A DNA stretch of 64,000 nucleotides, taken from assembly GCF_035084215.1 (NCBI RefSeq), contig NC_090351.1, positions 33,542,001-33,606,000 of the forward strand, given 5' to 3'. Below are positions 2 through 60,284 of this stretch, piece by piece. Position numbers and translations under genes: made by a program. This DNA comes from Heptranchias perlo. Its lineage: Eukaryota. The number at the start of each line of letters is the position of its first letter. Position 1 is the stretch's first letter. Below the pieces are notes generated by a model. That model was not told the origin of the DNA and searched no databases. It saw nothing but the letters and a program-made list of their open reading frames with translations.

Positions 2-8402
<8,401 letters not shown>

Positions 8403-23148: not shown

Positions 23149-23328
23149 CTAGGATTTGAATGACAGTGTAGAGTATTCCACTGATTCTGAAGAATTGATC
23201 TTGATGCCTCCATGTTGCTTTTTCAAATCCTTCAAATTGGCGTAAGTTGCAGAATTTCCCTCCGTCTGAGCGGAAGGTTGAATGGTTACGGTGGAATATG
23301 TAATCATATCTTCAGCTTCTCTGTCAAA
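23149..23328 (-). CDS. Gene A terminal ITIM exon
   Basis: FDREAEDMITYSTVTIQPSAQTEGNSATYANLKDLKKQHGGIKINSSESVEYSTLSFKS*; ITIMs ITYSTV and VEYSTL. Confidence 0.9.
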   Translation of the reverse strand, partial: FDREAEDMITYSTVTIQPSAQTEGNSATYANLKDLKKQHGGIKINSSESVEYSTLSFKS

Positions 23329-26300
23329 CTAAAATAAATCCATCAGTCAGATGCATGAAACTGTGTAAAGGTGATCAGAGTCTCACATAGCATGTACATT
23401 GAATCAATTATCTCTCAATCAGGAATGGTTGCTTGTGTGTTTTATGCATATATTTGCTAACTCTGACATTTAGCATTACAGCACCTCGAATTTTGCTCCA
23501 AGTGGGTTATTCCAGACCTCCTCTTGAGTATGCTGACTACCTGCTGATTCTAAATGATTGGAAATCATTAAAAGATTGGGGATTTTACTGTAAGTATGAA
23601 GGCAGCCTTGCTTGGAAACTATACCGCTTTCATTTTGTTTGTTGTGATGATCTATCTTGAAGTGAAGGAGCCAGAGTTGGGTTGGCTGAGCACTGCAACA
23701 AAGTGCCATCACCATGTCCTGGTGGCTGAGTGAGCAGCATATACCTTTCATTAGATGTACACACAACAGAACTGCCGCAAATTGTGCAAGCTCCTTTGAA
23801 TAGTACCACAATCATCCTACCCACTTGCTTCATGAGCCTTTATGAATAGTGTCAATTCTTGTGTGTCGACAGTGAGAACTGGGTCTAGCAAAGGAGCCTG
23901 TATTAATCAACAAGACCAGCTGTGCAGATATATTCGGCTTGCATCTCAGGTCACTGCTGTAACCACATCAAGTGGTGTAGATCTGTATCTCTTTTATAGC
24001 TCTAATATGATGCATGTATCAACATTAGCCTTTGTGCACTGTGTAATGTATTAATAGAAGTTCTACAATTATTGCAAAATTAAATGTTAGATGTAGAATG
24101 GCCATGGATTATATCCCAACTGATAAAGTTATAAGCACAGGATCAAATGATGCTAACTGGCTGCTAGGAAGAATATAAGAGTACTTCAAGGTGGCCAAAT
24201 TTCCCTCACTTTGGCCTCTGTTCTGTAAGAGGAGCAGGAGTAGGCCATATGGCCCCTCCAGCCTGCTCCGCCATTCAATATGATCATGGCTGATCTTCGA
24301 CCTCAACTCCAGTTTCCGGCCGATTCCCCCATATCCCTTGATCCCCTTAGAGTCCAAAAATCTATCGATCTCAGTCTTGAATATACTCGACGACTGAGCA
24401 TCCACAGCCCGCTGGGGTAGAGAATTCCAAATATTCATGACCCTCTGAGCGAAGAAATTGCTCCCCATCTCAGTCCTAAGATTTGCTTGTAATCTATTTT
24501 TCTCATCCAAGGTCCTAACACCTACTCAAATCTTTGTATTATCTGCGAATTTGTTGTTGGTTGCCCCAACACCTCGATCCAGATCACTGATAGGACCATT
24601 GCTCTTCGTCATCTCTAACACCAATCCCTGCAGGACTCCACTAGTAATTGGCCTGCCGCAGAACCACTGCCGTTAACAATAACCTTCTGTCCACGAGAAT
24701 GCAACTCCATTTCTACATCTAACCCAAAATCTGCCCACTGATCCCAATTATTAAAGAGCCTTGTGTGGCACCTTGTCAAAAGTGTTTTGAAAAGCAAGGT
24801 GCACAATATGTCAACATAGTTGCAGTCATTACTTTAGGGCATTTGTAGCTTATTGAAGAAATGAAGAAATAATATGGTAAGAAATTGCAAAACAAAAAAA
24901 GTGGAGCAATATATCATTACCTTATATTACATGCCATTCTTACCTTACTGACAGTGATGGGAGGTTCTGGGTTTTCATTATTACCTGTAAAATAAATGAG
25001 ACTCACTTGGAACAAGAATGCTCTCATTCACTTTCACCAGCACTATTCTAGTCTGAAATGCAAAGCACTGCAAGAACCTCAATCTCTCGCTCTGGTTCAC
25101 ACTCACGCTCACCCACACGCATCAAACCAACCACGTTCTTCTAACCTACTCCAGGAAGCTACAACCACTTGTTGCATCCTTGTCACATGAAGGAACAACC
25201 ACTTCCTTCAGAGTGTTGCACAAGATTCAGTTGAGCATAGCACACTGCGATATCTTTTGGCTTGTGCTGCATTTAAACCTGACTCATGGACTATTTTTTT
25301 CCCCTCTCTTCCCCAAATAATTTAATCTCCTGATGGTGATGAGTAGCATCTTCTGTTTTAGATTTCTGAAAACGCTGTGAGATTTCTCCCTGACATTGGA
25401 GAGCTTTTCAGTGCTTTTTCTGCAATCTGCTGAGAAAAAACTCGAGGCTCAAATGATATCACAAACTGAGAGGGATGCAAAAGTTTGATCTGAATCTGTG
25501 AGACGAGATTACGGCCTTCAATCCATTGACACATACTGGATAGTCTTCAAAAATGCTGCATATGCACAACAGTTAATTTATTTTTTATGTTTAGAATTTA
25601 CCAATTTCATGAACTATATGCAAGTTCCATCATATGACAAAATCCTCCTTATCACTAATTTTTCTCCACAATAGCTTACAGAATGATTCATGATTTGGTA
25701 CACTTTATAGAAAGGATCCTGAAAGGTGGATTACAAAACAGTAATCAGCCAAAGAGTTCACATGATAAATACTGCAACAGTATTTGAAAACCAAGATTCA
25801 ATTACTGTGTGCGCTATTTCAATGGCTCAACTGGTTAGGACAGTGAATAGCTGAGCTGTATAAACCTGGCTTTGTTCCTTGGACTGTGATGAATTAATTG
25901 ATATTGATGGGATCTGTGATAGGGGTTTCACAAATGGCTTCAGCCCCCCAAAATTAGAGAGAGAAGAATCGGTTAGAGCTCCTGCTCCTAGCTGCTATCC
26001 AGTAATTCCCGCTAGAAGTGCGGACATTGGGCGAGAACAGGATCAGCCTCCACTGTGATGCCCCTCGCAGTTGAATAGCCTGCTGACATTCACTGCCTAG
26101 GCTTATGTGTGAAGAATGGCCGAGGTGCGACAGTCAGTGACTTCAGGAGAGGAGAAGGAGGGGGAGAGAGAGGAAGAAAAACAACTGAGTGTCTGTAATT
26201 GTGGACATTGCATGAAATTATTGCAAATTCTGCTGCTGTAGTTGGGTGATGATATTAAATGAGTCAGGACCTCACACAATATTATGTTCCTTTGGATGGT

Positions 26301-29300
26301 GAATTACAATGAAGTTTCTCTCCCCCTGACTCCAGGAACGGAAAGCCTGCTGTGTTCACTGTAGTTCTTGTTATCTTTTACTTTGTTTACTTTATATTTT
26401 TTATATGTCAAAACAAGTACTAACAATATTGACCAAAAGTGTGCCCGCGCTATGTGCAGAACAAACTCGAGGGGCTGAATGGCCTACTCCTGTTCTTATG
26501 TGTCTTCAATGAGAAAGCAGTTCTTTTCAATTTCATATTAATGTTTTATTATTGTTCTATAATGCTAAACAATTGCTGTTTCTATTTGCATATTTATTGC
26601 AGAAAAAATGTTTTGTTGGCTACTTACCCTTATCTTTGGCAGTTTTCATCCTTTTCTTTCTCCATATAAGTAGAACCATCAGTGATAAGATTAATAGTCC
26701 CAGCACAGCTGAGAGGATGATGTACCATGTTTGTTGGGCAATTTTACTAAAAAATTAAAGTGGAATAGATGAAACTAAGGCTTTGTACATACAATAGAAC
26801 AAGTGAAAGTATCTCTAATACTTAGTAGATTGAACTAAAAAGAGGAATTGGTCTTAACTGTAATTATTCAAGAGCTAAAAGATGACCTATGTTCTGGTGA
26901 AACTATCTCTCACTGTTGAAACTCTGGGCTGAGGTGTGAGGCTTCCCTTGATGGAGGGAAGTCAAAGAAAGCGGACATACATAGCTCACATACTATCCCC
27001 AACTGACCGATTATTGTCAGGGCCTGGGAACATTTTGATCCCTAGCTTTTGCATTGATTGTATCGAATGGGAAGACAATTAATAGAAGAAGTATGGGGAA
27101 AAGTACAGCGCAAAAAAGGACATTGTGTGGACTGTGGTAGTTTTAAGGACATCAGCATTACTCATGAGGACAGCAGAACTGTCTATTAACTGTGACTTCA
27201 ATCAGAATGATTCAAGTTTTGTTATTTTGATGACAACTGTTAAAATCTTACCTTTTGATATTGATGCTAACTGTGGGGGTGGTGGATATGACCTCAGTAC
27301 TTAATGTTGGTCTTCTTGCTGTTTTAGGGGATTTATTAAAGAAAATATATTATAACAACGCAACAAATAACTGATAACCATCCACAACACAACATAACTT
27401 CCATCTTCTTCAAACCTTACGGTACCTAAGAAGGAGAATGCGGTGGGGTGGGAGGGAGGAAGACATTTTTTATTCACTCTATCACTGGCTGATTAAGTTT
27501 CATTTTCCTCTTGCCTTAAGACAATAGGTCAAATTCTGGATGGATGAACGAAGATGGGCTGAATGGACTTCTTTGTCCTTAATTATCGTGTGATCTTGTG
27601 AAAAGGAAGCCTGAGGAAAAGCTGGATTCTTAGTGGCAGAAACAACAAATGTACATTTTGAGGGGACTTCAAGAGTGGCTAACAGTGTTAGAAGGGCATC
27701 AAACTTAAACCCTTTCTATTTATTTTTATGAAGTTATTTGTGTAAGTTTCTATACTGTATATGTACATTTGTCCCTTGTTCTGTGTACTTCTGGCCTGAC
27801 GCCATTGTTAAGAGGATGGGTGGACTGCTTACTCTGAGGCCACCATCAATGATCCCTCTAGTCAGTCACTAGGAGGTGCCAGAAAGCACCCAGGCATGAT
27901 TCCACTCTCCAATATTTCCCTCCCTTGTGCTGGAAGATGCCACTCAACGCCTCACTGTTTAATCTGGCCAAACTAAAAAATGAGATAGAGTTTATGCTGC
28001 TTTCAGTCCAATATAATTTCCTGTTCTTTGCCATGGAAGGCCTGCTCTCCTTCCTTCATAAGCTGAATGAATTACAGCGCTGGACCAGCGACTGAAAGAA
28101 ATAGGAACAACCCTGGCTTCATTCACTGTCCATCCTAACACTGTATTCATTCAAAGTAATTCCAACTCATGATTTAAGTCCAGATTAAGATGACAATCAA
28201 TATAAATTTACTGAATTCTATGTATTGCCGGAAACAATAATTTAACTAAACTTTATGATATAAATCAAGTATTGTACAATATGTATGTGCAACAAGATGT
28301 AGAGAAGATGTTTCCACATGTGGACAAGACCAAAACCAAGGGTCATAAATATAAGATGGTCACTAATAAATCTAATAAGGAATTTAGGAGAAATGTCTTT
28401 ACCCAGAGGGTGGTTAGAATGTGGAACTTGCTACCACATGGAGCAGTTGAAGTGAAAAGAATAGATGCGTTTAAGGGGAAGCTGGATGAGTACATGAGGG
28501 AGAAAGGAATAGAAGGATACGCTGATCGGGTTAGATGAAATAGGGTGGGAGGAGGCTCGTGTGGAGCATAAACACCGGCACAGACCAATTGTTTCCGTGC
28601 TGTAAATTCTATGTTATTCTATGTAACACCAATTGAATTACAATAATTTTATATTGATTCTTACCATTCGAAATGTTCAGGACTTTAACCTGTGCAATCT
28701 CTACTTCAACTATTTTTGCTGCTCCACACCAGTACTCTCCTCCATCTCTTTTACGAATGTTGCTCATGGTAACGGCAAAACGCTGATCATCGTTAGTAGT
28801 GATTGATGCTCTGCCTTTATACAGATTTTGCACATGTCCATCAGAGCTGGCTATGGAGGTGCACTCATTTACAGAGGTTACTTTACACAATAATTTATTA
28901 TAGTCTATAAACTGCTCCGTGTACAGACACTGTACAGTGACTGCTTTTCCCGTTATACCATTGATCTGTGATTTGATTGGTGTCCATAATTCTGTTCGTA
29001 AATTAATAAAAAAACATTAAAAGTTTAAAATGCTGAAAAACGGAACATATTTTGTTGAACAAAATATACAATAAATGATCCAATCATTGAAAATGTCAAA
29101 AATGTTCATACTTAAGAACACAGTCACAGTGCTCAGTGGGCCTGTGTTCGGTCCCTGCCCGTTCTAATACTATATTTATTAATGGCCTCTATTTTGAACT
29201 GTATTTAAGAAGTAGGTCAGTCTAAATTTGGTAAATCCTTTCTGTATTGTGCTACTGCAGTGTAAACAAGAACATGTTAGGGTACATTTTCTAAGTCCAT

Positions 29301-32300
29301 GGAAGGTACCTAACTCCAGGCATGTTATACAGTGGAGGTCAGGAATAAGTTCAGGAAAGAGACCTGAGGATAGTTTTGGTTGCTAAAGATACACAAGCAA
29401 TGTGAGTTTGCTATTTGGAAGTCAAATAGAGTTTTAGGTGGTACTGCGAGAACCATTGAATACAAAATTGGTTACATAAGGACATCTGCCCTTGGGGTAT
29501 TGAGGGTGAAATCAATGGAAAAGAAAATCTGCAGACGCTACTTTCTGCGAATTGTGAATTTTTTTTGTTTCTGTATGACATTATTTATAATTGTGCCAAG
29601 TGTTTTTTTTTGCTACTATCCAGACCTTTATGTACAATGTGGAGAACAAAATATAGGACTGTAATATGTTCAATTACAATGAAGACAGGCTGCCGATTCG
29701 CTATCACCCATTTTACGCAACTGCCCCAAGAGCCATTTCACCCCCATTCGGGCCTAAATTCATTAGCGCCCAAAGTCGAGTGCGACATGCAGCCAAGGCG
29801 CACCAGAACGGAGAGGCCCGAGGACCATCCGAAATTAGGGGAGCGGGAAGGAGGCAATCGAGGTGGGGGTGGGTGGGTGGGGGTGGTGGTTGTATGAGCG
29901 CGGGCCGACAGCGGCTGCAGTCTTAATGTGGCAGTAGGAGGAGGACTCCTGCAGGCTTCTTCCAAGGCCTCCAGCGGCGCCGCTGTAGAGCCTGAAAAAG
30001 TAGTCGAAGCTTGCCTCCAACTCGCCTTAACCAATTTCGTGAACGGGTCTGGAAATGGGTTTCAGGAGGCTCATTTCAATATTGAAATGAGGACTGTGCT
30101 CATTTCAGGCGGCCGCCATTGCCGCCTTAAAAAAAAAGGCCCTACCGAATTCAGCAGTGGCTTGGGCACATATGGAAATGAAGGTTATTTTACTGTGGAG
30201 ACACAGGGGCTTGGATGGAATATGATTTAAGGTTTGTAAAATGATTGAGGGGAAAGGATACTGTCTGTTTAGATAGGTTAATGGAAATGGAGTTAATAGT
30301 GGGAGCCCGTGATCATACGTTAATAAGCTGAGCTCATAACGTGGCCCATACAGTCCCTGAACAGCAGCAATCCTGGTGTCACTGCACCCGGACCATATTA
30401 TCAGCCCTATTATCTTCCGATAAATTCTTACCTGCGAAAACCTTTAGCAGTATCACATCTAAAATATTGATATAATCTGCATTTTGATGTCCACACCAGT
30501 ACGTTCCTGTATCTCTCTCCTGAAGTCGTGTTATGGTAACGGAAATTAACCCATTGTCTTTGGTGATTGATGCTCTTCCACTATACTCTCTGTGCACAAA
30601 TCCCTTGGTGCTCACTATAGTAACGCATCTCCTCTTGGAAACTGCTTTACACCAGCTGTAGATGCCTTGGTTCACAGCCTGCGGACACTTCACTGTGACC
30701 GTTTCTCCCACTGCCGCTTTCATCACCATCGATGCAATTTGTGGCCACAAACCTGTTGGTGAAATTTAACGTCAGAAAGCTTAAAGTATCACAACAATCA
30801 ATTTTACCCAGCTCTTCTGGTAGAACACAAATAACAAATGCAAAGTCTTACACATGGGGAACAAAAAAAAAATCCAGGAAGCGACTATTGCTTAAATGGA
30901 AAGAAAATAATGTGTATGGAAAATGAAAGAGATCTGGGGGTCCTGATTGACAATAAATTGAAGCTTTCTCAACAACGCTCGGTGGCAGTGAGTAAAGCAA
31001 ATCAGATGTTGGGATGTATTAAAACGTCACTATTGAGCCGAAGTGGTGAGGTAATCCTGCCATTTTATAAATCATTGGTGCGACCGCACTTGGAATACCG
31101 TGTGCAGTTCTGGTCACCACATCACATAAAGGATATTGCAGCTATTGAAAGGATACAGACGAGAGCAACCAGAATGATTGAGGGATTGGATTATGAGGAG
31201 TGATTATGTAAATTGGGCATGTTCTCACTGGAAAAGAGAAGGTTGAGAGTTGATATGATTGCTGTTTCTCTTGGTCCCGAACAGTAGAACCAGAGAACAC
31301 GGCCTGTGCTTGAAGGGGGGCAAATTCAAAACCAATTTGTGGAAACATTATCTCAGTGAGCGAGTGGTTAATCTATGGAACAGGCTCCCTAGGGAGATGG
31401 CGGAAGCAGGTAGTATTGACTCATTTAAATGTAAATCAGATAGATTTCTTACAGAAAATAATATTTTCGGATACGGTGTATGAGTAATTTGAGACATGAT
31501 ATATGTTAAGTGTAGCATGCTTGGGAGGAACAGGTGGCAATGGTTCCAAAAGCTCTCCACCACTGGGGGTTTCCTCACCCCATATCTGGGTCTGTTGTAG
31601 ACTAATTGAGAGAGATTGATTGCTATGATTAGTCAACAACTCCATTATCGTTTTATCATGCGATTACCAGGATGGTAGAAGGTGAACTAGATGGACCTTG
31701 GTCTTTTTTCCTCAAGCAATTCTCATGTTCCTATCAATCTGCTGCAACACATGGGCCCGTATTCTCCTTGTCGTGTTTAAGATTTTCCAGCAGTAAGTCC
31801 TCAAATTTGCCCCTAAAGTACTACCTCCTGAAATGACACATAGGTGGTAATTTTCCGAGTACTCGTTGGCAGCGAGGAACCAGTGACTATTAGAAAGTTG
31901 CTTTTCCGATATGTCCTGGTGGCGGACGAGACTCTCGCTATCAGGATGTACTCGAAAAATGTAGGCAATCATCTGTTTATAAATCGAATGGAAGTCTTAA
32001 TTGTTAAAGTAAATCTGTGTACTTTGGGGATATGGATACAGGTCATAGCATCGAGGCGTTGGGCTGTGCACCAATGACAAAGAAGCACTCTTTAGTCCGC
32101 TGTCACGATTATGGGGACATTGGGAAACCAATAATTCGTTCTACTGAGCAACGTGACAGATATGGCTTGAGACATAACTTTGGAAGCTGCTGGCTGGCTG
32201 AGTGTGAGGTGGATTTAGCAAGGCTCTGAAAGGTGCTGGAAACATATGAAACCAGTCGGTATGGGCTTTGTGGGATTTAACTCATCACTCCAAACCCTCC

Positions 32301-33429
32301 TACTCATGCAGGTGTAACTAAGAGTGATTTACAGTTAGTGCAGTCACTAACTGTAAATCACTATCAGATTGATCTGTGGAGCCATTACAACGTCCTTAAG
32401 TGACTAAGGAAGCTTCACTTTTCATAATATCACTGTGCAGGTACCACTATACTGTCTGGCAGCATAGGCTGAGGTGGGTTATAACTTGCAGGAGAACCCG
32501 CTAATGGAAACAGAGCGGGAAAGTGATGTGCTTTTACTCAGTAGGCCAGCTCGGGAGCTCAACAATCAAATGATCTTTGATTAAATGAACAAACTATCAG
32601 TAAATGATATGTTACAACAACAACAACTTGCATTTAATATAGCGCCTTTAATGCAGTAAAAGTCCCAAGTTAAGAATAAACAACTTGAAATCTTAGAACG
32701 TGACGTTCATATTCACTTTACATTCCACACTGTAAGTTTATCTTCACTACTGTAGAAACCTGAGGACGGTTATTTTGTGCTGTTCGTCTCTGAATAGAAC
32801 TACAATCTAAATTTTGACGAAGGGCTTAAACCTGAAATGTTAGCCTGCCTGGGCCAATTTTCACCTGGCCAAATTGGCATTGTTGGAGTCGGTAGACTTA
32901 CTGCCCCGTTAACGTCGATGTCTGGCAGCCGCCATTTTAAAAGGGGCCTTCCTTTGTTATTTTGGGCAGTGGGCCTCTTGATAATGCAAATCGTACTCAC
33001 CCCTTCATATTCCTGTAATGTCCTACAATATCCCTCCGTCCACTTCCTTGATGGAACTCTCCATTCCGCTGACTCAAGCTTCTTCTGCATTGTCTCCTCC
33101 CTTTGCCCCACCATTGATGGCTGTGCCTTCAATTAGGTCCAACTCTCTGGAATTCCATCCCTAACCCCCCCTCCTCCTCCTCCTCGCCAGCAGCCTCTCC
33201 TCCTTTAAGACCCTATTTAAAACACATCTCTTTGACCAAGCTTTTGGCCACCCCTCCTAATCTCTCCTCATTTGGCTCGGTGTCCGTGTTCTTCACACCG
33301 CTGTGAAGCGCTTTGAGCCTTTTTTTTAATGTTAAAGACACAATATAAATGCGATCTGTTATTCTAAATATATAATTGGATAATCTTACTTGATATCAAA
33401 GTGAGGAACAGCAGAGCAGAGAACTCCAT
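23149..33429 (-). CDS. Gene A: pIgR/CD300 (CMRF35/MDIR)-like inhibitory receptor with two V-type Ig domains, 364 aa
   Basis: Seven exons with canonical splice sites and consistent phases: leader 33429-33390, Ig1 30752-30432, Ig2 28991-28665, stalk 27318-27252, TM 26746-26628, cytoplasmic 24984-24944 and ITIM exon 23328-23149. Total 1095 nt with no internal stop. Confidence 0.9.
24224..24812 (-). mobile_element. CR1 LINE fragments
   Basis: FFAQRVMNIWNSLPQRAV plus CR1 tail (24224-24480); RT pieces (24500-24812). Confidence 0.8.
24944..24984 (-). CDS. Gene A short cytoplasmic exon
   Basis: GNNENPEPPITVSK; ttttacag| and |gtaaga, phase 1-0. Confidence 0.8.
25822..26125 (+). mobile_element. tRNA-derived SINE (degraded)
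   Basis: A-box-like TGGCTCAACTGG at the 5' end; related antisense pieces near 3240-3330 and 42960-43030. Confidence 0.45.
26628..26746 (-). CDS. Gene A transmembrane exon
   Basis: WYIILSAVLGLLILSLMVLLIW followed by RKKR stop-transfer; 119 nt, phase 2-1. Confidence 0.9.
27252..27318 (-). CDS. Gene A S/T-rich stalk exon
   Basis: ARRPTLSTEVISTTPTVSINIK; aacag| and |gtaaga, phase 1-2. Confidence 0.82.
28291..28626 (+). mobile_element. CR1 LINE 3' end
   Basis: TKGHKYK...FTQRVVRMWNLLP plus tail with attctatg repeats. Confidence 0.85.
28665..28991 (-). CDS. Gene A Ig V domain 2
   Basis: GKAVTVQCLY...KLLCKVTSVNEC...YKGRASIT...DGGEYWCG; phase 1-1, 327 nt. Confidence 0.93.
29685..30152. mobile_element. 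GC-rich non-autonomous DNA-transposon-like remnant
   Basis: GC/CpG-rich block in an AT-rich intron; no credible ORF; family not determined. Confidence 0.4.
30432..30752 (-). CDS. Gene A Ig V domain 1
   Basis: GETVTVKC...WCKAVSKRRC...YSGRASIT...DTGTYWCG; extra Cx7C pair typical of CD300/pIgR/TREM; phase 1-1, 321 nt. Confidence 0.93.
30832..31732 (+). mobile_element. CR1 LINE 3' part with long 3' UTR
   Basis: ERDLGVLID...YKSLVRPHLEYRVQFWSP...ERVVNLWNRLP; the 3' UTR end recurs at 35275-35360. Confidence 0.88.
32323..32362. repeat. Perfect 18-bp-stem hairpin
   Basis: agtgatttacagttagtg-cagt-cactaactgtaaatcact. Confidence 0.9.
33055..33362 (+). mobile_element. L2 LINE 3' fragment
   Basis: caccattgatggctgtgccttc...ctctggaattcc...ctgtgaagcgcttt...tataaatgc; same tail as 37530-37764. 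Confidence 0.7.
33390..33429 (-). CDS. Gene A leader exon MEFSALLFLTLIS
   Basis: accATGG Kozak context, 40 nt, phase-1 |gtaaga donor. Confidence 0.85.
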
Positions 33430-33556: not shown

Positions 33557-36084
33557 ACAACTTGATGTGTAGCAGTTTGAGGACGTTGTCGTTTCTTGGC
33601 TGACCGTTGACAAACTACAACTTTAAATAAAGGTGTACACGCCCAAAGGAAAGGGATGATAAATATGAAAATCCCTTTTCAATTTGAATCTCTGGTGTTT
33701 TTTTTTTCTGTATTCTGTATTAAAGGAGAAAATAATGCTTTTGTGCTTAACCCAGTAAAGCATTTCAAGTGCACCCCTTTTAGGGCCTTGACCAGCAATT
33801 TCAAGGGACGAGAATCAATGTGAACTGGTATCCAGAGAGTGTAAAGAGGAGCTGGACTGAGGGCTTAACTGTATGACGTAGCAATTCAAACTGGGGTACG
33901 CTAGGAGATTTGTGAGGGGATCCAAGGAGTGCCTGAGTTGATCAGATTTCTATTCTTTTGTCACCAGAGTTCTGTGCGTTTAAGTGACCAATAGAAATAC
34001 CTATACAGAGTCTTCAATTGCAGAGGCTTAGGTGCCATATTCAAAAATTTGAAAATTAAAATTTAATAAGGCCACCGGGCCTGCCACGACCAAATTCTGC
34101 AACCCCGCCCCTTCCAAACAGACTCCCCGGTGGAAAATGCAAATGACCCTCAGGCTGGAGAATTGTGGGGGCGGGGTCTAAGGTACATCCCCGTGCCAGG
34201 TGCAAGTCCTGCCACACCACACTTCCAAAGACGTAACAGACTAGCGGAGGATCCAGTTTGAAATGTACTGAGGAAGTTCTTCTTTTACCTCAATGTAAGA
34301 CAGACACCAGTCACAACTCCTGCTGTAATGACTTACTGCACGGTTCTCAGTTAAACTAATAAAGATGATTCACCCGCGGTTACTAATCATTCAGATAATG
34401 CTCCTTGGGTGCAGGAGGCTGACCTCCTCCTGGATGGAGAGACTTTCCCTTTAGTCTCAACTCTGAAACCATCAACTCCAAAGGATGTTAAGCTTGGTTC
34501 ACTATCAGTGTTGGTTTATGTGTAACATACTTAACTACTGCACTTGGGTTATCTATATAGACCAATAATGCATTGTGCTTGTCGATCTTGTTTGTACATC
34601 AGCTGTTCATGTTTACAAAGTGTTTCTATGCCTGAACAAAGTAATGGCTGTATTCTTGAAGTAGGTAAATGTTAGTGTCTGGGGGAAGAGAAGATGCGTT
34701 GGAGGAGGGTGAGACCCTTTGCCTGCACTCTCCCCGTTGACCTGCTCGTTCCCTTTTTGGAGCAGGTGGACTTTGCCAGCATCCTCTGTTTTAATTCAAA
34801 CCAGATCCCCAGGTTTTCTGTTTTCCATCTCTCCCATTTCCTTAGGCCAGTGAGGTGAGGCATAGGTGGGCTCCACTGGTGGGGTCCAAGCATGGCATGT
34901 GTCCTGGCCCTCCCCTCCCCTCCCCTCCCCTCTCCTCCCCCCCCCACCCCACCGCTCTCAGGGCAGAACAAGTTTCAGGGCTGGCAGGTGCCAATGATGC
35001 TCCCACAGTGGCACACCTGCTCCATGAGGTGCCCTCCTACTGACCTGAGCAAATTCAAGGCCTTCCTCATTGTTTTTTATATTTATATTAAGATTTTATA
35101 AATGTTGACCATCTATTCTCTCCACAAATGCTGACTGTGTTTCCAGCTTTTCCTGTTTTTGTTTTAGATGTCCAGCATTTAGCTCTTTATTGAAATCAGT
35201 AAACCATGTTGTTTGCTTATTGCATGTGGAACTGTACCTTGTTTGAAAATACAATAGCGTTCCCATTGGAACTCCATTATTGTTGTATCATATCATTACC
35301 AGGATGGTAGAAGGTGAACTAGCTGGACCTTGGCCTTTTTTTTTATCTAGCAATTCCTCTGTTATTCTTCATGCATCGCAGCCTTGTTAAGTTTTATCCC
35401 TGTGTATCAATAAGCATTAAGCAATTTATAGTTAAAATGAAATACACCCTCCAACATTGCTTTCAGCCTGAAGAAAAACAACTGTGATGGAGTGAGCTGT
35501 TAATGGGTTAACATACTGGATTAACATACAGGCTGGGAGACCAGCTCCTAATCTCAACATTTGCTGGCATCCACAACTGGGCCTTCTGCAGATGGCAAGC
35601 TTTGATCTTGGATAACCAGTCGTAGGAAGTCCTGAGTGGAGGCAAAATGCTCAGCCGACTGACTGAGGTTCAGTGGTCCTTGCTCACTGACCAGGGGAGT
35701 CGCTGGGAGAAGAAGGGAGATTTTTGGCCATCCTGCCCGCCAGAGGTCGGGTTGAGTGGCTTGTGGGATACAAAGGAGAGATGGAGGGACTGTGACAGCC
35801 GGATTGATTGGAACAAAAACAAATTAAAATTACTCAGTGACCTGGGATCTCAGCGATTAAGTGTTTGAATCATTTCTGCTCAGAGGGTCGCATGTTACAG
35901 TGCCAAAGTTACCAGCCATTCAGATTTGCTTTGTTTGTTTTGTCAGTTCCTAGTTGCATCACTAGATGGAGTGCTACACCACAGTAAGATATTTCATGAT
36001 GTGGAGATGCCGGTGATGGACTGGGGTTGACAATTGTAAACAATTTTACAACACCAAGTTATAGTCCAGCAATTTTATTTTAAA

Positions 36085-36123
36085 TTCACAAGCTTTCGGA
36101 GATTTTCTCCTTCCTCAGGCAAA
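36085..36123 (-). ncRNA. Minimal hammerhead ribozyme (PLE pLTR)
   Basis: tttgc-CTGAGGA-a-GGAGA aaa TCTCC-GAAA-gc-TT-gtgaa. Confidence 0.78.
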
Positions 36124-36936
36124 TGTTTCAAGAGCTCCTTGAAGCCTACGCATTTATACATATTGAACAATACATGGTGTTTACAGACTGCCCCTGCAAC
36201 TGCCCGTTGCCAAGGCGATCACCGTGTTCAGACAGAGAGGTGTCATCTGCAGAACCCCCGAATACACATTCAACAAAAAAACAAACAGGGAAAAAAAACA
36301 GAAAAAAAAAACACAGAGAGAGGCAGAAACATCCGGAAGGCAGAGAGAGCCAGCAAATGACCCATTATATTAAAAACAGATAACATTTGTTCGCTGGTGG
36401 GGTAACGTGTAGCGTGACATGAACCCAAGATCCCGGTTGAGGCCGTCCTCATGGGTGCGGAACTTGGCTATCAATTTCTGCTCGACGATTTTGCGTTGTC
36501 GTGTGTCTCGAAGGCCGCCTTGGAGTACGCGTACTCCAAGGCGGCCTTCGAGACACACGACAACGCAAAATCGTCGAGCAGAAATTGATAGCCAAGTTCC
36601 GCACCCATGAGGACGGCCTCAACCGGGATCTTGGGTTCATGTCACGCTACACGTTACCCCACCAGCGAACAAATGTTATCTGTTTTTAATATAATGGGTC
36701 ATTTGCTGGCTCTCTCTGCCTTCCGGATGTTTCTGCCTCTCTCTGTGTTTTTTTTTCTCTGTTTTTTTTCCCTGTTTGTTTTTTTGTTGAATGTGTATTC
36801 GGGGGTTCTGCAGATGACACCTCTCTGTCTGAACACGGTGATCGCCTTGGCAACGGGCAGTTGCAGGGGCAGTCTGTAAACACCATGTATTGTTCAATAT
36901 GTATAAATGCGTAGGCTTCAAGGAGCTCTTGAAACA

Positions 36937-36975
36937 TTTGCCTGAGGAAGGAGAAAATCTCCGAAAGCTTGTGAA
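36937..36975 (+). ncRNA. Minimal hammerhead ribozyme (PLE pLTR)
   Basis: tttgc-CTGAGGA-a-GGAGA aaa TCTCC-GAAA-gc-TT-gtgaa. Confidence 0.78.
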
Positions 36976-37217
36976 TTTAAAATAAAATTGCTGGACTATA
37001 ACTTGGTGTTGTAAAATTGTTTAAGATATTTCATACCTGGAAGGAAAATTCAACATTGGCTAAAATAAGGAAAGTTTTCACGGGAAGTAGTTAGGCGACA
37101 GTTAGAAAATTATTCATAGCTTTGAATGCCCGATTATAGAAAGGATGTTTAAACAATTGTTATTATCATGGGCTGACTGCATAGCATGCAATTCCCCTGC
37201 AGAGTTTATAGATGAGT

Positions 37218-49200: not shown

Positions 49201-51115
49201 CCCTTCTGATTCACATCTGGGCCTGTCCTGTCAGAAGGAGCCTGGAGGGACTACATGGGTTTTTGGATATCCAGCCTAAAACACAGTGCTCAGGCCTATA
49301 CCTCCCTGGGCTCCATGGAGAACTTTCAAACAAGGGATTTGCCATTTGTTGCATGCACCTATGCACTGCAGACTGGCTAATGTTACATATACCTCAAGCA
49401 AAACCCTGGAAGGACCCAAGAGGCAAAAAGGTTCAAGACAATGGTAACGTCAACAGCTGGAGGGAAAGCCATGTTTGCCCTGGACTGTGGTTGAAGGTTC
49501 TAAGCTCCCCATACCACCTTCCCAGCAAACCGCAGGTGTCAAACACACTGCTCCTTGCTGTTTCAGCAAAGTTGAACGATTAAGCCAAATCTTTTCCCCA
49601 AGATCGATGATTGTCCTGTTATCAAAATTGCTCTTGGTCACTTTAAAAAATGGATTGTTTTTATTCATTCTTGGGATGTGGGCGTCATTGGCGAGGCCAG
49701 AATTTATTGGCCTGAGAAGGTGGTGGGCCTTCCACTTGAACCACTAGCAGTTTAATGCAACTCAGGCCACTTCAGAGGGAAGTTAAGAGTCAACCATGTT
49801 GGTGTAAGGATGGCAGGTTTCTTTCCCTAACGTACATTAGAGAACCAGTTGGGTTTTTACAACAACCCAACAGCTTCATGGTAACTTTTACTAATAACAG
49901 CTATTTATTTCCAGATTTTTAAAACTGAATTCAAATTCTCAGACTTCCACAGTGGGATTCGAACTCACGCTCTCTGGATTATTAGTCTAGGCCGACTGGA
50001 TTACTAGTCTGGTAAGATAATCACCACACTATCCGTACCCATTGCCTCCAAAATACAGCCTTCAAAGTCCAGTGCCCACTTTTCAGGCAAACTTGAGGTA
50101 GACGTGACAGGAAAATTGGTTATCTTTTGGTGCAGGAAAGCAATGAGAAATAAATGCAGCGTGAAGGCTGGAAGGTTAAAATACTTTCTTTGTGGAACTG
50201 TTGGTTTGGCAACACACCAAGAGCATCATGGATGATTCAGTTGAGGATGTTATCTATGTGCACTGGTGTCAAACAGAGCGTTCGGTGAATCTAAAGATAG
50301 GTGTTGTAGGGCTAGTCCAAAAAACGACAGGAGGAGGTTTATCAGCTCTGAGCTGGTACTGAGAAATATGATCATTTAAATGCAAGTAAACTCACAAGTC
50401 ACAAAACAAATTGCTTCAACAGCAATTACATTATTTGAGCTTCAGTTGCTGGATAAAGCACAGTGTGAAGAAACACTCAAGGCTCTGATGCAATTCAATT
50501 TTTGGTAACATCTAATCTTTTAGAAGAAGTGAGATATTGCTGATATTTCTTTAAATGTAATTGAACTGAAATAATGGAGCATGGTGATTTTTCTTTTGAA
50601 AAGAACTTCTGTTTTAAAGTCTGATATTTCACACAGTTTGCATTTTAAGAGACAATGTTCGAGGTTCAACATTTTTCTGTGCAGTCTGTAGAGAGAAGTG
50701 CCTTGGGACGTTTCACTACGTTAAAGGTGCTGAATAAATGCAAGTTTTTTGTTGTAAGCCTAAAAAGAAATGAAGTTCGCCTCTTGGCATTGATGAGGAG
50801 CCGGAGTTTCAGGTAGGACAGAGCTGCAAGAGGGCCGAAAGAATCAGATGCAGCGGGAAAGCACAGAAAGAAGCGAAGGTGGATTGAAGATGCTGGAAAA
50901 GCACATGGATATTACAACAACAACAACTTGCAAGACCGTGGGTGGTTTACCTTTAGCTGACTGCACCAAAACTCCAGATTAGTCAGTCAGTCGAAGTTTC
51001 TGGTCTTCATCTCCTCTGATTACAAAAGTACTTTTTAGTAACAGTAAAAAAACAAGATTTAAAAGAAAGACTTACCTGGTGCAGAAGTCAGAATCAAAAG
51101 AGCAATTAATTCCAT
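40092..51115 (-). CDS. Gene B: CD300/CMRF35 (MDIR)-like inhibitory receptor with a single V domain, 274 aa
   Basis: Six exons with canonical splice sites: leader 51115-51076, Ig 47212-46886, stalk 46180-46072, TM 43846-43728, cytoplasmic 42197-42145 and ITIM exon 40268-40092. Total 825 nt with no internal stop. Confidence 0.9.
40548..40958 (-). mobile_element. Deu-domain-type SINE, near full length
   Basis: Reverse complement of the core at 37983-38290, with a tRNA-like head near 40900-40958. Confidence 0.72.
41180..42088. mobile_element. hAT-type MITE containing a nested CR1 fragment
   Basis: TIRs tAGGGTTGCCAAC and GTTGGCAACCCTg; 8-bp TSD tcctgggg at 41172-41179 and 42089-42096. Confidence 0.85.
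41346..41990 (-). mobile_element. Young CR1 LINE 3' part
   Basis: ORF 41430..42116: LYRALVRSYLEYCVQFWSP...RRMRGDLIETYKIL...FFTQRVVNL. Confidence 0.92.
42145..42197 (-). CDS. Gene B short cytoplasmic exon
   Basis: GTNEQNITDAENPAVICK; ttttatag| and |gtaaga, phase 1-0. Confidence 0.8.
43358..43668 (+). mobile_element. Deu-domain-type SINE
   Basis: Same core as 37983-38290. Confidence 0.7.
43728..43846 (-). CDS. Gene B transmembrane exon
   Basis: WQVVLSAVVVIIVFLLLVAAVILC-AKTKQQK; 119 nt as in gene A. Confidence 0.9.
45716..45938 (-). mobile_element. CR1 LINE 3' end
   Basis: atagaatcatggaatcatagaag tail and cagacactcaccaccct (RVVSVW). Confidence 0.75.
46072..46180 (-). CDS. Gene B mucin-like stalk exon
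   Basis: TPARKSTMGPTTRTARTTEASVATSLTTSFHSTGTV; phase 1-2. Confidence 0.85.
46886..47212 (-). CDS. Gene B Ig V domain
   Basis: LTGPKKVDGEVGGSVTVDCRY...KQWCKG...GRVSLTDNKTQGIFSVTM...DEGLYWC; phase 1-1, 327 nt. Confidence 0.94.
48840..49230 (-). pseudogene. PIF/Harbinger DDE transposase relic
   Basis: Minus strand NQKG..INMQLV...KFPGC*HDALIL and IGDQGYSLLPCLMPP...ERRYNETHAITKAIIE, HARBI1-family motifs with stops and frameshifts. Confidence 0.8.
49657..50040 (-). mobile_element. tRNA-headed SINE sharing both head and tail with the LINE at 53791-57044
   Basis: B box GAGTTCGAATCC; body matches 56715-57044; tail matches 53791-53900. Confidence 0.8.
51076..51115 (-). CDS. Gene B leader exon MELIALLILTSAP
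   Basis: gcaATGG, 40 nt (same size as gene A leader), |gtaagt donor. Confidence 0.85.
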
Positions 51116-51219
51116 TGCTGTGGACAGTTTCTGGTGGGTGAATTCACCCTGGGCAGACATCGTATTTTAGCTGTACTGTGTTTGAATCGGTTGGTTCCTT
51201 ATACTGTATTTGAGTTGGT

Positions 51220-51263: not shown

Positions 51264-52167
51264 CACAGTAAGGAAATATAAAGAAAAGGTTTGTGGCCCT
51301 GACTAAAGGACTAGGTTGTTATTCTAGGTGTTTTGGGGCCTTTTACCCTCTATAACATTCTGAAGTTTACATGTAAAGTAGAGCAATCTGCTTAATTTTC
51401 AGCCATATTTGTGCATTACTATAATGAATTGTATTGAGATACAATACTCTTGTATACTCCACTCACACATTCACAATTCTTCTGCATGCGTTCTCACACG
51501 TTTATAAAAAGAAAACATTATCTGCTGAATCAATCACCATGACAACACAACAATGACGACTGAGAAAAATTTTCCACCGGCAGGAAAATAACCGTCCAAT
51601 CAGAATTCACCCACAATTATTGGGAATTATTACCATAACGACCAGAATTAAATCACTTGTGATCTGTGAAGATGACTTTTCCCCACTTTCTGACTACAAG
51701 TGGTATTTGTGCTGTTTTCAATCCATGTAGGCCAGGATTGAGCCAGGTTGGAGAAATTAATGGGCGTAAGGAATCTCCATGAGCAATGGAGCACATATAG
51801 GACCTCTTGCAGCTCTGTCCTACCTTAATCTCTCGTACATTTTTAGTATAGGCTTCTGTTATTGATTTTGTTGGCAATTTATGATTTTTTTTTCAAATTT
51901 CTTTGGAGAATTTCATTTTCTAAAAGTATGTTTATGTGGAACCTAAATGAGTCGTACGATATCTTCTAATTAACAGGAATGCTGGTGATTGAAGCATTTA
52001 CAAGACTTTAGCAGAATAAATGAGGGGACATGAAAAAGGAGATCTTACAATGTCAACTTTGATGGGAGCTGAATGGCATCTAAGTGAAAAGTCCCTAGTG
52101 GTTGGCATGCCAACTTATTGATGGTTTTGAAGTGCCTCAATATATTAATGGTTGAAGTGGTACAAGG

Positions 52168-52930
52168 TTTTTTTTATTTGTTCATGGGACGTGGACGTCG
52201 CTGGCGAGGCCAGCATTTATTGTACATCCCTAATTGCCCTTGAGAAGGTGGTGGTGAGCCGCCTTCTTGAACCGCTGCAGCCTGTGTGGTGAAGGTTCTC
52301 CCACAGTGTTGTTAGGTAGGGTGTTCCAGGATTTTGACCCAGCGACGACGAAGGAACGGTGATATATTTCCAAGTCGGGATGGTGTGTGACTTGGAGGGG
52401 AACGTGCAGATGGTGTTGTTCCTATGTGCCTGCTGCCCTTGTCCTTCTAGGTGGTCGAGGTCGCAGGTTTGGGAGGTGCTGATGAAGAAGCCTTGGCAAG
52501 TTGCTGCAGTGCATCCTGTGGATGGTACACACTGCAGCCACAGTCTGCTGGTGGTGAAGGGAGTGAATGTTTAGGGTGGCCAATCAAGCGGGCTGCTTTA
52601 TCCTGGACCGTGTTGAGATTCTTGAGTGTTGGAGCTGCACTCATCCAGGCAAGTGGAGAGTATTCCATCACACTCCTGACTTGTGCCTTGTAGATGGTGG
52701 AAAGGCTTTGGGGAGTCAGGAGGTGAGTCACTCGCCGCAGAATACCCAACCTCTGACCTGCTCTTGTAGCCACGGTATTAATATGGCTGGTCCAGTTAAG
52801 TTTCTGGTCAATGGAGTCCCTCCGGATGTTGACGGTGGGGGATTCGGCGATGGTAATGCCGTTGAATGTCAAGGGGAGGTGGTCAGACTCTCTCTTGTTG
52901 GAGATGGTCATTGCCTCGCACTTGGCTGGT
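52168..52930 (-). mobile_element. 5'-truncated LINE copy (same family as 53791-57044)
   Basis: AGQRLGILRRV...YKAQVRSVMEYSPLAW; AATAAA and poly(A) tail. Confidence 0.9.
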
Positions 52931-53790
52931 GAAAGAAGGCTTGCCAAAGAGGCCAGCAGGCACCAGGGATGAACCAGCATGATGCCACCAACTGTACGCA
53001 GGCTGTAACATGGAACTGCCTGGCACTGACAGTGAGAAATAGGATCAGCAGCATGGAGCCGGTTGCTTATCTGTGCCAGCTACTGCCCCCATCATCTCCT
53101 TCCTCAACTTAATATGTGATTGTTTTGTGTAAAATAGATTTCTTAACTATTTCTCAATGTTAATCTCTAACAGTCGCCCCTTTGTAGGAACTTGGGAATA
53201 AATTCCCCAGAATCCACACCTCTCCTGGTTAGCATCACATACTATCTTGAGCCATTTGCTCTTCTCGTCTCAGTTTCATTTGATTCATATCACACATCAT
53301 GAAACAGACAAAGAAAATCATAAAACATCGTACAGAAAGCTGGGTAGAGGGGGTCCGGAGGTCTTTGATTAGAATCTCCCCCTGCGTTTTCCCAATGTTT
53401 GAGGTGGTGGCCAGCTTATAAAGGACATTGTTTAGTTTCGGCAAGGACACAACCCTCTCCGAGAGAAAGCTTTTAATTAATCATTCTTCACTACTCTTTC
53501 CTGACTTTCACTAAATTGTGCATTGATCCCTGATTGGTACCCTTTGGTGGGTTGTTCCCTGGCGAAGTATGTTTCTCGTGGGTGGAATCACTTGTCCTTT
53601 CTCCCTAACCCCTTGATTCCCGTTATCATAAATTTTATTGTTACCACCTCGGGCACTGATTTTAGACCCCAATTGGTGGTGTAATTTTCCTGTTCATGCC
53701 TCATACACTCAGTAGCTTCCTCGTGTCCAATTAAGTTACATGTCCCCATAATATTATCATTTCACCTCGGTTATGAGCTCTGGAGGAACC

Positions 53791-56700
53791 TTTTTTTTTA
53801 TTCGTTCACGGGATGTGGGCGTCGCTGGCAAGGCCGGCATTTATTGCCCATCCCTAATTGCCCTCGAGAAGGTGGTGGTGAGCCGCCTTCTTGAACCGCT
53901 GCAGTCCGTGTGGTGACGGTTCTCCCACAGTACTGTTAGGAAGGGAGTTCCAGGATTTTGACCCAGCGACAATGAAGGAACGGCGATATATTTCCAAGTC
54001 GGGATGGTGTGTGACTTGGAGGGGAACGTGCAGGTGGTGTTGTTCCCATGCGCCTGCTGCCCTTGTCCTTCTAGGTGGTAGAGGTCGCGGGTTTGGGAGG
54101 TGCTGTCGAAGAAGCCTTGGCGAGTTGCTGCAGTGCATCCTGTGGATGGTGCACACTGCAGCCACAGTGCGCCGGTGGTGAAGGGAGTGAATGTTTAGGG
54201 TGGTGGATGGGGTGCCAATCAAGCGGGCTGCTTTATCTTGGATGCTGTCGAGCTTCTTGAGTGTTGTTGGAGCTGCACTCATCCAGGCAAGTGGAGAGTA
54301 TTCCATCACACTCCTGACTTGTGCCTTGTAGATGGTGAAAAGGCTTTGGGGAGTCAGGAGGTGAGTCACTCGCCGCAGAATACCCAGCCTCTGACCTGCT
54401 CTCGTAGCCACGGTATTTTTATGGCTGGTCCAGTTAAGTTTCTGGTCAATGGTGACCCCCAGGATTTGATGGTGGGGGATTCGGTGATGGTGATGCCGTT
54501 GAATGTCAAGGGGAGGTGGTTAGACTCTCTCTTGTTGGAGATGGTCATTGCCTGGCACTTATCTGGCACGAATGTTACTTGCCACTTATGAGCCCAAGCC
54601 TGGATGTTGTCCAGGTCTTGCTGCATGCAGGCTGGGACTGCTTCATTATCTGAGGGGTTGCGAATGGAACTGAACACTGTGCAGTCATCAGCGAACATCC
54701 CCATTTCTGACCTTATGATGGAGGGAAGGTCATTGATGAAGCAGCTGAAGATGGTTGGGCCTAGGACACTGCCCTGAGGAACTCCTGCAGCAATGCCCTG
54801 GGGCTGAGATGATTGGCCTCCAACAACCACTACCATCTTCCTTTGTGCTAGGTATGACTCCAGCCACTGGAGAGTTTTCCCCCTGATTCCCATTGACTTC
54901 AATTTTACTAGGGCTCCTTGGTGCCACACTCGGTCAAATGCTGCCTTGATGTCAAGGGCAGTCACTCTTACCTCACCTCTGGAATTCAGCTCTTTTGTCC
55001 ATGTTTGGACCAAGGCTGTAATGAGGTCTGGAGCTGAGTGGTCCTGGTGGAACCCAAATTGAGCATTGGTGAGCAGGTTATTGATGAGTAAGTGCCGCTT
55101 GATAGCACTGTCGACGACACCTTCGATTCTCAATCATCAGCAAAGTGAATGAAAAGATGGGGCGGTAATTGGCCGGATTGGATTTGTCCTGCTTTTTGTG
55201 GACAGGACATACCTGGGGCAATTTTCCACATTGTCGGGTAGATGCCAGTGTTATAGCTGTACTGGAACAGTTTGGCTAGAGGCGTGGCTAGTTTTGAAGC
55301 ACAAGTCTTCAGCACTACAGCCGGGATGTTGTCAGGGCCCATAGCCTTAGCTGTATCCAGTGCACTCAGATGTTTCTTGATATCACGTGGAGTGAATCGA
55401 ATTGGCTGAAGACTGGCTTCTCTGATGGTGGGGATATCGGGAGGAGGCCAAGATGGATCATCCACTCGGCACTTCTGGCTGCAAACGCTTCAGCCTTGTC
55501 TTTTGCACTCAGGTGCTGGACTCCGCCATCATTAAGGATGGGGATGTTTACAGAGCCTCCTCCTCCTCCTCCCATTAGTTGTTTAATTGTCCACCACCAT
55601 TCACGACTGGATGTGGCAGGACTGCAGAGCTTTGCTCTGATCCGTTGGTTGTGGAATCGCTTAACTCTGTCTATATAGCATGTTGCTTCCGCTGTTTAGC
55701 ATGCATGTAGTCCTGAGTTGTAGCTTCACCAGGTTGGCACCTCATTTTTAGGTACACCTGGTGCTGCTCCTGGCATGCTCTTCTACACTCCTCATTGAAC
55801 CAGGGTTGGTCCCCTGGCTTGTTGGTAATGGTAGAGTGAGTAATATGCCGGGCCATGAGGTTACAGATTGTGCTGAAATACAATTCTGCTGCTGCTGATG
55901 GCCCACAGCACCTCATGGATGCCTAGTTTTGAGCTGCTCGATCTGTTCTGAATCTATCCCATTTAGCACGGTGATAGTGCCACACAACACGTTGAATGGT
56001 GTCCACAGTGCGAAGACAGGACTTCGTCTCCACGAGGACTGTGCAGTGGTCACTCCTACCAATACTGCCGTGGACAGATTCATCTGCGACAGGTAGATTG
56101 ACGAGGACGAGGTCAAGTAGGTTTTTCCCTCGTGTTGGTTCACTCACCACCTGCCGCAGGCTCAGTCTGGCAACTATGTCCTTCAGGACTTGGCAGCTCG
56201 GTCAGTAGTGGTGCTACTGAGCCACTCTTGATGATGGACATTGAAGTCACCACCCAGAGTACATTCTGTGCCCTTGCTACCCTCAGTGCTTCTTCCAAGT
56301 GGTGCTCAACATGGAGGAGGACTGATGGTGGTCATCAACAGGAGGTTTCCTTGCCCATGTTTGACCTGATGCTATGAGATTTCATGGGGTCCGGAGTCAA
56401 TGTTGAGGACTCCCAGGGCCACTCCCTCCTGACTGTATATCTCTGTACCGCCACCTCTGTTTGGTCTGTCCTGCCAGTGGGACAGGACATACCAAGGGAT
56501 GGGACGATGGCTGAGAGTTATGATTCTGTGAGTGTGGCTATGTCAGGCTATTGCTTGACTCGTCTGTGGGACAGCTCTCCCAATTTTGGCACAACTCACT
56601 AACATCTGGGGACGAGGACTTTTCAGGGTCAACTGGGCTTAGTTTGCCTTTGTCGTGTCCGATGCCGGGTGATCCATCCAGTTTTATTCTTATTATGACT

Positions 56701-57044
56701 TTCTGTGGCAAGATTGTACAACTGAGTGGCTTGCTAGGCCATTTCAGAGGGCGATTCAGAAGCAACCACATTGCTGTGGGTCTGGAGTCACATATAGGCC
56801 AGACCGGGTAAGGACGGCAGGTTTCCTTCCCTAAAGGAGATTAGTGAACCAGATGGGTTTTTATGACAATCCGGTAGTTTCATGGCCACCATTACTGATA
56901 CTAGTTTTTTTAATTCCAGATTTTTAAAAATTTAATTTAAATTCCCCAGCTGCCGTGGCAGTGATTTGAATTCATAACTCCGGATTATTAGTTCAGGCCG
57001 CTGGATTACTCGTCCAGTAACATAACCACTATGCCACCATACCC
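53791..57044 (-). mobile_element. Near full-length, frameshifted APE-RT LINE (CR1/L2 group) with a tRNA-like 5' head
   Basis: EN remnants (PKLGEL, PTRGKNLLDLVL, GRSDH), RT motifs (QFGF, LDIKAAFDRVWH, GVPQGSVLGP, FADD), poly(A) at 53791; A box TGGCATAGTGG at 57036-57026. Confidence 0.9.
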
Positions 57045-59876: not shown

Positions 59877-60050
59877 TTATGATTGAAATGCAAGAGTAGG
59901 ATATTGAATTGATTCTGAAGCATCTGCAGCCTCCTACTGTTCATGATGAGGCTTCTCATAAATATAAGTGGGGAAGTCTTCTTGTATCTGAGTGCTGAAT
60001 TTGCTTGTTGCCATGTCATATGTGATATCTTGTCCATCATCTCTGAAAAA
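59877..60050 (-). pseudogene. Gene C: decayed ITIM exon of a third CD300/pIgR-like paralogue
   Basis: ttttaaaag|FFRDDGQDITYDMATSKFSTQIQEDFPTYIYEKPHHEQ*EAADASESIQYPTLAFQS* aligns end to end with the terminal exons of genes A and B; internal TAG at 59936-59934. Confidence 0.85.
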
Positions 60051-60234
60051 CTTTTAAAAAAGCATTTATAAATGATTGTTGCCATACTACAGTGTGTCGA
60101 TTGATTTCAAATAGAAGAAAATTTAACACTTGTGATTGATAAAGGATTCTGTTATAAAATGCTGCATTTTATTTTGTTGTACTTTCTTCCATAATTTCGT
60201 TGAGAAGCTGGAATAAATTAGAAGAAGGACTTAC

Positions 60235-60284
60235 CCATACAACTTTTCATTGTGCCCACAAGAATTTTTTAATAAGTTTTGTTT
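60235..60284 (-). CDS. Gene C putative short cytoplasmic exon carrying a stop codon
   Basis: catacag| and |gtaagt; 50 nt, compatible with phase 1-0 like the 41- and 53-nt exons of A and B; reads ETKLIKKFLWAQ*. Confidence 0.55.

Follow-up and report, generated by a model that had tools for sequence, protein, structure and literature searches.

In CD300a and CD300f, the immunoreceptor tyrosine-based inhibitory motifs (ITIMs) of the tail are phosphorylated by Src kinases and recruit SHP-1 and SHP-2. For the clearnose skate, the MDIR family was reportedly presented by Cannon et al. in 2006, and Flowers in 2021 is said to have described a single shark cluster of double-disulfide receptors that is syntenic with PIGR. 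An excerpt of PMC3031540 characterises the MDIRs as multigene activating and inhibitory receptors resembling CD300, TREM and pIgR, and an excerpt of PMC11955638 cites Flowers 2021 for the family name. Here, we report on a receptor cluster of approximately 345 kb in the sevengill shark Heptranchias perlo (assembly GCF_035084215.1), which spans 33.57–33.91 Mb of contig NC_090351.1. One end of it is formed by the stretch of 64,000 nucleotides (nt) that we analysed (positions 33,542,001 to 33,606,000 of the forward strand; hereafter the window, whose own numbering is used for its features). A literature search returned no paper on the H. perlo cluster, two key papers lying outside the coverage of that search. 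The window carries genes A and B and the last exon of gene C. For all three genes, which belong to a family known from skates, RefSeq already provides automatic models. Judging from our analysis, A and B are intact, spliced single-pass membrane receptors that likely damp leukocyte activation through the tyrosines of their tails, and C, an old short-tailed sister, likely binds a ligand without braking.

In a six-frame translation, the minus strand showed three Ig-like frames, and a repeat search linked three V exons (family D14) as well as three last exons (family D19). An original prediction, made from the letters of the window, had proposed three same-strand paralogues, two of which, A and B, share 40-nt leaders, V exons of 321–327 nt in phase 1-1, 119-nt transmembrane (TM) exons and a short exon in phase 1-0, with two V domains in A, one in B and three tail tyrosines in both. 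This architecture was borne out for A and B, each of which has a stalk exon in addition. The exon models of A and B were read from the window DNA on the minus strand and are all bounded by GT-AG, and the three V exons of the window all score above the Pfam V-set cut-off (E 9e-13, 2e-8 and 2e-14). Splicing was followed in contigs of four runs (X1–X4), which all hold B and come from one sample; their designation as RNA is the tool's guess, and the evidence consists of joints that skip introns. Gene A comprises seven exons and encodes 364 amino acids (aa) with two V domains:

33390–33429, minus strand: leader exon of A, 40 nt (DNA reading; joint 30750/33388 in run X2)
30432–30752, minus strand: V1 exon of A, 321 nt, phase 1-1, with a Cx7C C-C' pair (Pfam V-set E 8.8e-13; contigs)
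28665–28991, minus strand: V2 exon of A, 327 nt, phase 1-1, with a Cx7C pair and the C-strand Trp replaced by Leu (Pfam V-set E 1.7e-8; contigs)
27252–27318, minus strand: Ser/Thr-rich stalk exon of A, 67 nt, phase 1-2 (DNA reading; contigs)
26628–26746, minus strand: uncharged TM exon of A, 119 nt (contigs; helix 251–287 in the structure model)
24944–24984, minus strand: short cytoplasmic exon of A, 41 nt, phase 1-0 (contigs; RefSeq match)
23149–23328, minus strand: last exon of A, with the tyrosine motifs ITYSTV, ATYANL and VEYSTL (DNA reading; contigs)

In a single X2 contig, the six junctions of A are all spliced at the GT-AG sites that had been predicted; X3 showed 4/6, X1 1/6 and X4 0/6. 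The A protein is identical to RefSeq XP_067863715.1 (P0020) from H. perlo, and the RefSeq models XP_067863715.1 and XP_067863716.1, named ‘polymeric immunoglobulin receptor-like’, have the same exons as gene A. Two V folds with the V strand pattern and a TM helix were present in a low-confidence structure model of A (pLDDT 54). Gene B comprises six exons and encodes 274 aa with one V domain:

51076–51186, minus strand: first exon of B, consisting of its own 5' untranslated region (UTR), which reaches to at least 51186, and the 40-nt leader at 51115–51076 (contig of run X2)
46886–47212, minus strand: V exon of B, 327 nt, phase 1-1; the C' Cys site (47078) is Arg as assembled and Cys as expressed (Pfam V-set E 2e-14; contigs)
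46072–46180, minus strand: stalk exon of B (DNA reading; contigs)
43728–43846, minus strand: uncharged TM exon of B, 119 nt (DNA reading; contigs)
42145–42197, minus strand: short cytoplasmic exon of B, 53 nt, phase 1-0 (fits a 52-nt contig gap; present in P0003)
40092–40268, minus strand: last exon of B, with the tyrosine motifs VTYSTV, DTYVNV and VKYSTI (DNA reading; contigs)

One X2 contig runs from the 5' UTR of B at 51186 to its last exon, with three of the five junctions abutting directly and a 52-nt gap at the place of the 53-nt exon; the junctions predicted at the outset were recovered for both genes in these contigs of probable RNA. B is contained in RefSeq XP_067863879.1 (P0003), a model that has the same name as those of A. 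As assembled, its V domain has three cysteines instead of four, with Arg59 at the C' site. In the contigs of all three runs that cover this site, R59C provides the C' Cys (Cx8C), so that the hallmark absent from assembled B is present in the expressed allele. The extra C-C' pair that had been claimed for these receptors holds for the A domains and for the expressed allele of B, not for B as assembled. We applied a spacing of Cx6-9C, taken from an excerpt of bioRxiv 2022.04.21.489081, and found Cx7C in A-V1, A-V2, C-V1 and C-V2; the disulfide bond itself is predicted. Contigs and assembly differ at four sites of B, all residue-changing (47082 F57L, 47078 R59C, 46960 L98W and 40147 S257N), and both alleles of 46960 and 40147 are represented among the runs. 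A structural cysteine of gene B is a polymorphic site, and B-type models from three further sharks (P0006, P0011/P0012 and P0013) likewise lack the C' cysteine. A call on selection was abandoned, four differences being too few.

The closest solved structures for the window domains are domains of pIgR, CD300, FcmuR and NKp44, in agreement with the CD300/TREM/pIgR-type V family assigned originally. CD300lf was the best single-domain match for B (71 bits), C-V2 (83 bits) and the G genes further along the cluster (74 bits), while TREM2 scored 27–32 bits against cluster domains. A and B combine an uncharged TM with two ITIM-consensus motifs each and a middle YxN motif; C has lost the final ITIM and was not classed as inhibitory. 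With CD300a and CD300f, the cluster shares a V domain with a Cx6-8C pair, a stalk, an uncharged TM, a three-tyrosine tail with a terminal ITIM, and activating relatives. Unlike in these receptors, the V domain is doubled in A and C, a Gly-x-Asp motif in complementarity-determining region 3 (CDR3) is missing from A and B, and the activating partners in the shark cluster carry an Arg near the outer end of the TM instead of the central Lys of CD300. The type of V domain, tandem domains and a chromosome with IL10 and C1orf116 are common to the cluster and to pIgR, FcmuR and Fc-alpha/mu-R, but the cluster has ITIM tails and not a sorting tail, has 1–2 domains and not 4–5, and lies 4.7 Mb from IL10–C1orf116.

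Of gene C, the window holds the following:

59877–60050, minus strand: last exon of C, coding to a TAG at 59936–59934, behind which a remnant of the final ITIM segment continues in frame (DNA reading)
60235–60284, minus strand: 50-nt exon-like piece in the last intron of C, for which no support was found; it is not the paralogous short exon and is unused by P0003

The rest of C (the leader, both V exons, the stalk, TM and short exons) lies beyond the window and extends for about 42 kb from base 64000. The short cytoplasmic exon sits about 7 kb upstream of the 60235–60284 piece, with which the range given in the original prediction ends. Hypothetically spliced to 60050–59790, that piece would give another frame that is open past the TAG; no support for this joint was seen. 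A 677-nt unspliced X2 contig at 59145–59821 (minus strand), right behind the stop of C, is possibly its 3' UTR.

Annotation beyond base 64000, as suggested originally, yielded the remainder of C and a cluster of about 15 genes. A genome search gave 17 matches between 33.57 and 33.91 Mb of the contig (C30), plus one at 28.75 Mb. In a census of 454 kb (the window and 390 kb upstream of the genes), we counted 18 V exons, 11 C2 exons and 10 TM exons with an arginine (Arg-TM, activating type), along with 4 ITIM-type tails and 1–2 V domains per gene; leader exons were located for 14 genes. Starting at the window, the order is A, B, C, D, E, F, eight G genes and H. D has an ITIM tail and a TM exon that was not located, E has an Arg-TM, F combines V-C2 with an uncharged TM and a tyrosine-rich tail, the G genes combine V-C2 with an Arg-TM, and the leader of H was not found in the upstream sequence. 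The V domains of F and G are 90% identical, and the seven G units compared are 96.1–99.98% identical across 15–17 kb; from these sequences, F and G read as a textbook inhibitory/activating pair whose activating copies have recently multiplied. The eight G genes (L016–L029, about 33.76–33.90 Mb) have the same V protein in five cases. RefSeq chains G units into three-module proteins (P0040 and P0041), even though a leader and a TM exon are present per unit, and the chained models may reflect read-through splicing or G copies inflated in the assembly. Profile searches for Arg-TM exons (10 bits) and C2 exons (15 bits) gave no match in window bases 1–64000. Alternative splicing of the window genes to an activating form was discarded, as the profiles revealed no hidden Arg-TM or C2 exon.

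To place these genes, domain trees were built by a quick method for a first set of 124 rows, under LG+G4 for 67 rows and under a mixture model for 38 of those 67. A profile search returned skate MDIR3 (P0063) and MDIR5 (P0118), which share 50–60% identity and the V-C2 module with G, MDIR5 also having an Arg-TM. Their domains group with those of cluster F, G and H (100/98 and 99/98 for G/H), and this grouping makes the locus the MDIR locus; cluster F/G/H is orthologous to MDIR3/5 by its V-C2 module, Arg-TM and 46–60% identity. The elasmobranch paired-receptor context proposed at the outset is upheld by this grouping, by the Arg-TM partners upstream and by the species being a shark. Like the clearnose skate MDIRs, the cluster is multigene, activating as well as inhibitory, and variable in domain number, with double-disulfide V domains; unlike in MDIR3/5, the C2 module is absent from A, B and C. 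A, B and C represent three further lineages of the MDIR locus, none of them assigned to a named MDIR. The domain phylogeny that had been envisaged joined F/G/H, but not A, B and C, with MDIR3/5.

Could A, B and C be recent duplicates that arose in the lineage of H. perlo through shuffling of Ig exons, as the original prediction of ongoing diversification implied? Exon sizes and phases are common to the three genes, and genes have indeed been duplicated recently in another part of the cluster, outside the window. However, their domains share 27–48% mutual identity, their introns are similar at repeats only, and each gene falls into its own cross-species clade (98–100 support), all three being found in sharks and B and C also in rays. 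Taken together, these results indicate that A, B and C are old, and, barring alignment artefacts in the clades, a recent origin by shuffling is almost certainly wrong. Domain number does change in this family, and the module of TM and tail is swapped, but such changes show up when species are compared and in the G array, which lies outside the window: A- and B-type ectodomains are joined to an Arg-TM in other sharks (P0102, P0022, P0135; P0011, P0012, P0014), and A-type models with 2, 3 or 6 V domains and C-type models with 2, 3 or 4 were found across species (automatic models, some of them neighbour fusions). The tail of C, originally called broken, raises a related question, namely whether C is a decaying pseudogene or forms one read-through protein with B as in XP_067863879.1. 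The in-frame TAG is indeed followed by a recognisable ITIM remnant (74% identity to A over 50 nt; repeat family D19), and RefSeq fuses C and B both here and in the basking shark (P0003 and P0001). Yet the other exons of C are open in the upstream sequence, and in all six species with an informative end, which include rays (little skate and a stingray) as well as sharks (two catsharks and zebra shark among them), C-type models lack the final ITIM and stop 0–8 residues from the position of the TAG (the fused basking-shark model was excluded). Since the short tail is common to these orthologous models, it is not a fresh lesion, and from the model ends C is best read as a conserved short-tailed subfamily, although the ITIM remnant is still recognisable in H. 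perlo. As for the fusion, XP_067863879.1 has the same B coding exons as our model but joins C to B at 51157, inside the 5' UTR of B and across an intron that is not GT-AG, whereas the B contigs continue into B's own 5' UTR beyond this point and a joint from C to B does not occur among those listed (15 of 121). C and B are separate genes, and decay or read-through is very unlikely. Curated in this way, the genes add members to a known family and correct its annotation, and the cluster falls into five old lineages that differ in their predicted ligand sites.

For gene A, we also weighed a pIgR/FcmuR-like immunoglobulin receptor, whose V domains would bind polymeric IgM (or IgW) and whose ITIM tail would mediate antibody feedback inhibition. 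The best single-domain matches of A-V1 were pIgR D1 (47 bits) and FcmuR (44 bits), compared to 31 bits for CD300lf, besides one single-chain variable fragment (50 bits), and pIgR was on top of the fold matches of the A model. Moreover, the A domains, together with the lone gene at 28.75 Mb, side with pIgR D1–D4 (96/95 under LG+G4, 89/80 under the mixture model), one clade for all cluster domains was marginally rejected (p-AU 0.039 with one long row left out, and 0.037), and IL10 and C1orf116 lie on the same chromosome. A-V2, on the other hand, matched CD300lf better than pIgR D1 (54 versus 41 bits), the fold ranking favours multi-domain targets (pLDDT 54, TM-score 0.27), and a different V gene occupies the PIGR-syntenic site, at a distance of 4.7 Mb. 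The tree alignment has 110 columns, long branches and no TREM, NKp44, FcmuR (FCMR) or FCAMR rows, and the support is unstarred under the better model; the A domains seem to lean, with weak support, to pIgR D1–D4 and the other lineages to CD300. A search among representatives (150 rows) gave no nearer relatives of A. We consider this function of A unlikely. Doubtful, too, is the wider proposal that the domain lineages are older than the split of pIgR and CD300, with A as an ITIM-bearing polymeric-IgM receptor and the 28.75-Mb gene as the counterpart of the FCAMR/PIGR founder. If true, it would provide named candidate Ig receptors for cartilaginous fish, and the locus would gain in importance if IgM were bound by A or by the 28.75-Mb gene, because, to our knowledge, an Ig receptor of this family has not been demonstrated in sharks.

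We favour A and B as inhibitory receptors whose mechanism we model on CD300a and CD300f. Ligand clustering would lead to phosphorylation of their ITIMs by Src kinases, and the phosphorylated ITIMs would recruit SHP-1/SHP-2 and oppose activating signals, including those of the Arg-TM relatives, which may signal via an FcR-gamma-type adaptor. C may serve as a tether or decoy that binds lipid but does not brake, and A and B would bind another ligand, probably protein; we hold these ligand assignments with less confidence than the inhibitory reading. Among the domains printed, CDR3 Gly-x-Asp occurs in 10/10 of the C lineage, 0/16 of the A lineage and 0/19 of the B lineage, its register being inferred from Trp89 and a rodent CD300, and it is also found in F, G and H. 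According to an excerpt of PMC6166816, Gly96 and Asp98 of CD300lf form a site for Ca2+ and phosphocholine (phospholipid). At the level of the locus, genes would evolve by birth and death: A, B, C, D/E and F/G/H are ancient lineages that have persisted, and introns of equal phase would permit unequal crossing-over that alters domain number and joins one ectodomain to either type of tail. A sturgeon pIgR-like model (P0209) has a TM segment like the shark Arg-TM together with CDR3 Gly-x-Asp, hinting that the activating module may predate the split from bony fish.

Several observations weigh against this account. A and B have no activating twin in this assembly, and the multi-domain models of other species are automatic, some being fused neighbours. 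The domains of A, B and C share 31–38% identity with those of MDIR3/5 and form separate lineages in a comparison that covered MDIR3 and MDIR5 out of MDIR1–5, and Gly-x-Asp is absent from MDIR3/5 (0/5). The near-identical G units could reflect an assembly error that inflates their copy number. The evidence on expression comes from a single sample, and the stop codon of C falls outside the listed contig pieces, which give no evidence either way on its expression.

In the trees, the CD300 rows group with a newt protein, with no shark lineage as supported sister. Synteny with the human CD300 neighbourhood, presumably 17q25 with OTOP2/3 as marker, was not found for this one marker, the otopetrin pair being on C26 and the cluster on C30. 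A TREM/NKp44 position, whose hallmarks we take to be the vicinity of NFYA and a Lys-TM, was likewise not recovered: NFYA (35.29 Mb) is 1.4 Mb from the cluster and the TMs of A, B and C are uncharged. PIGR, FCAMR and FCMR presumably lie between IL10-family genes and C1orf116, and we take C1orf116/IL10, NFYA and the otopetrins as markers of the human PIGR, TREM and CD300 neighbourhoods, respectively; the cluster is not at the first of these positions, as an IL10-family gene is at 28.88 Mb and C1orf116 at 28.23 Mb, with another V gene in the interval. This single V gene (28,751,463–28,757,024 of C30; L040:5463-5789 and L045:909-1024, plus strand) thus occupies what we take to be the PIGR/FCAMR position. 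Its V domain retains the C-C' pair but not the cysteine of the B strand, and its TM exon (116 nt, phase 2-1) encodes a central Lys of the DAP12 type, the linkage of V and TM exons being inferred; an ‘Fc-alpha/mu receptor-like’ cluster came second in Atlas (0.93).

Genes for AMP deaminase, GST and AdoHcyase flank the cluster at one end and a G-alpha and a CCDC48 gene at the opposite end, a set that we take to resemble the human 1p13.3 block. Window positions 41–133, 5539–5616 and 5727–6026 (plus strand) are the last exons of an adenosylhomocysteinase-like gene, tail to tail with the cluster (Pfam AdoHcyase E 5.5e-15). At about 34.18 Mb (L099:1009-9189 and L100:150-560, plus strand), exon-like pieces encode a signal peptide and a Ser/Thr-rich stretch; by position they are presumably CSF1-like, and Pfam and Atlas gave no identification for the candidate cytokine exon near 34.185 Mb. 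A STRIP match was rejected as weak and containing stops. Within the window, nearly identical direct and inverted retroelement copies at 15850–19780 and 35990–37030, presumably Penelope-like, carry a 481-aa reverse-transcriptase-like frame and include a 255-nt perfect-spacing palindrome (36275–36784). LINE-like endonuclease/reverse-transcriptase frames were found at 61601–64000 (plus strand), in the last intron of C, and at 52160–56840 (minus strand), between C and B.

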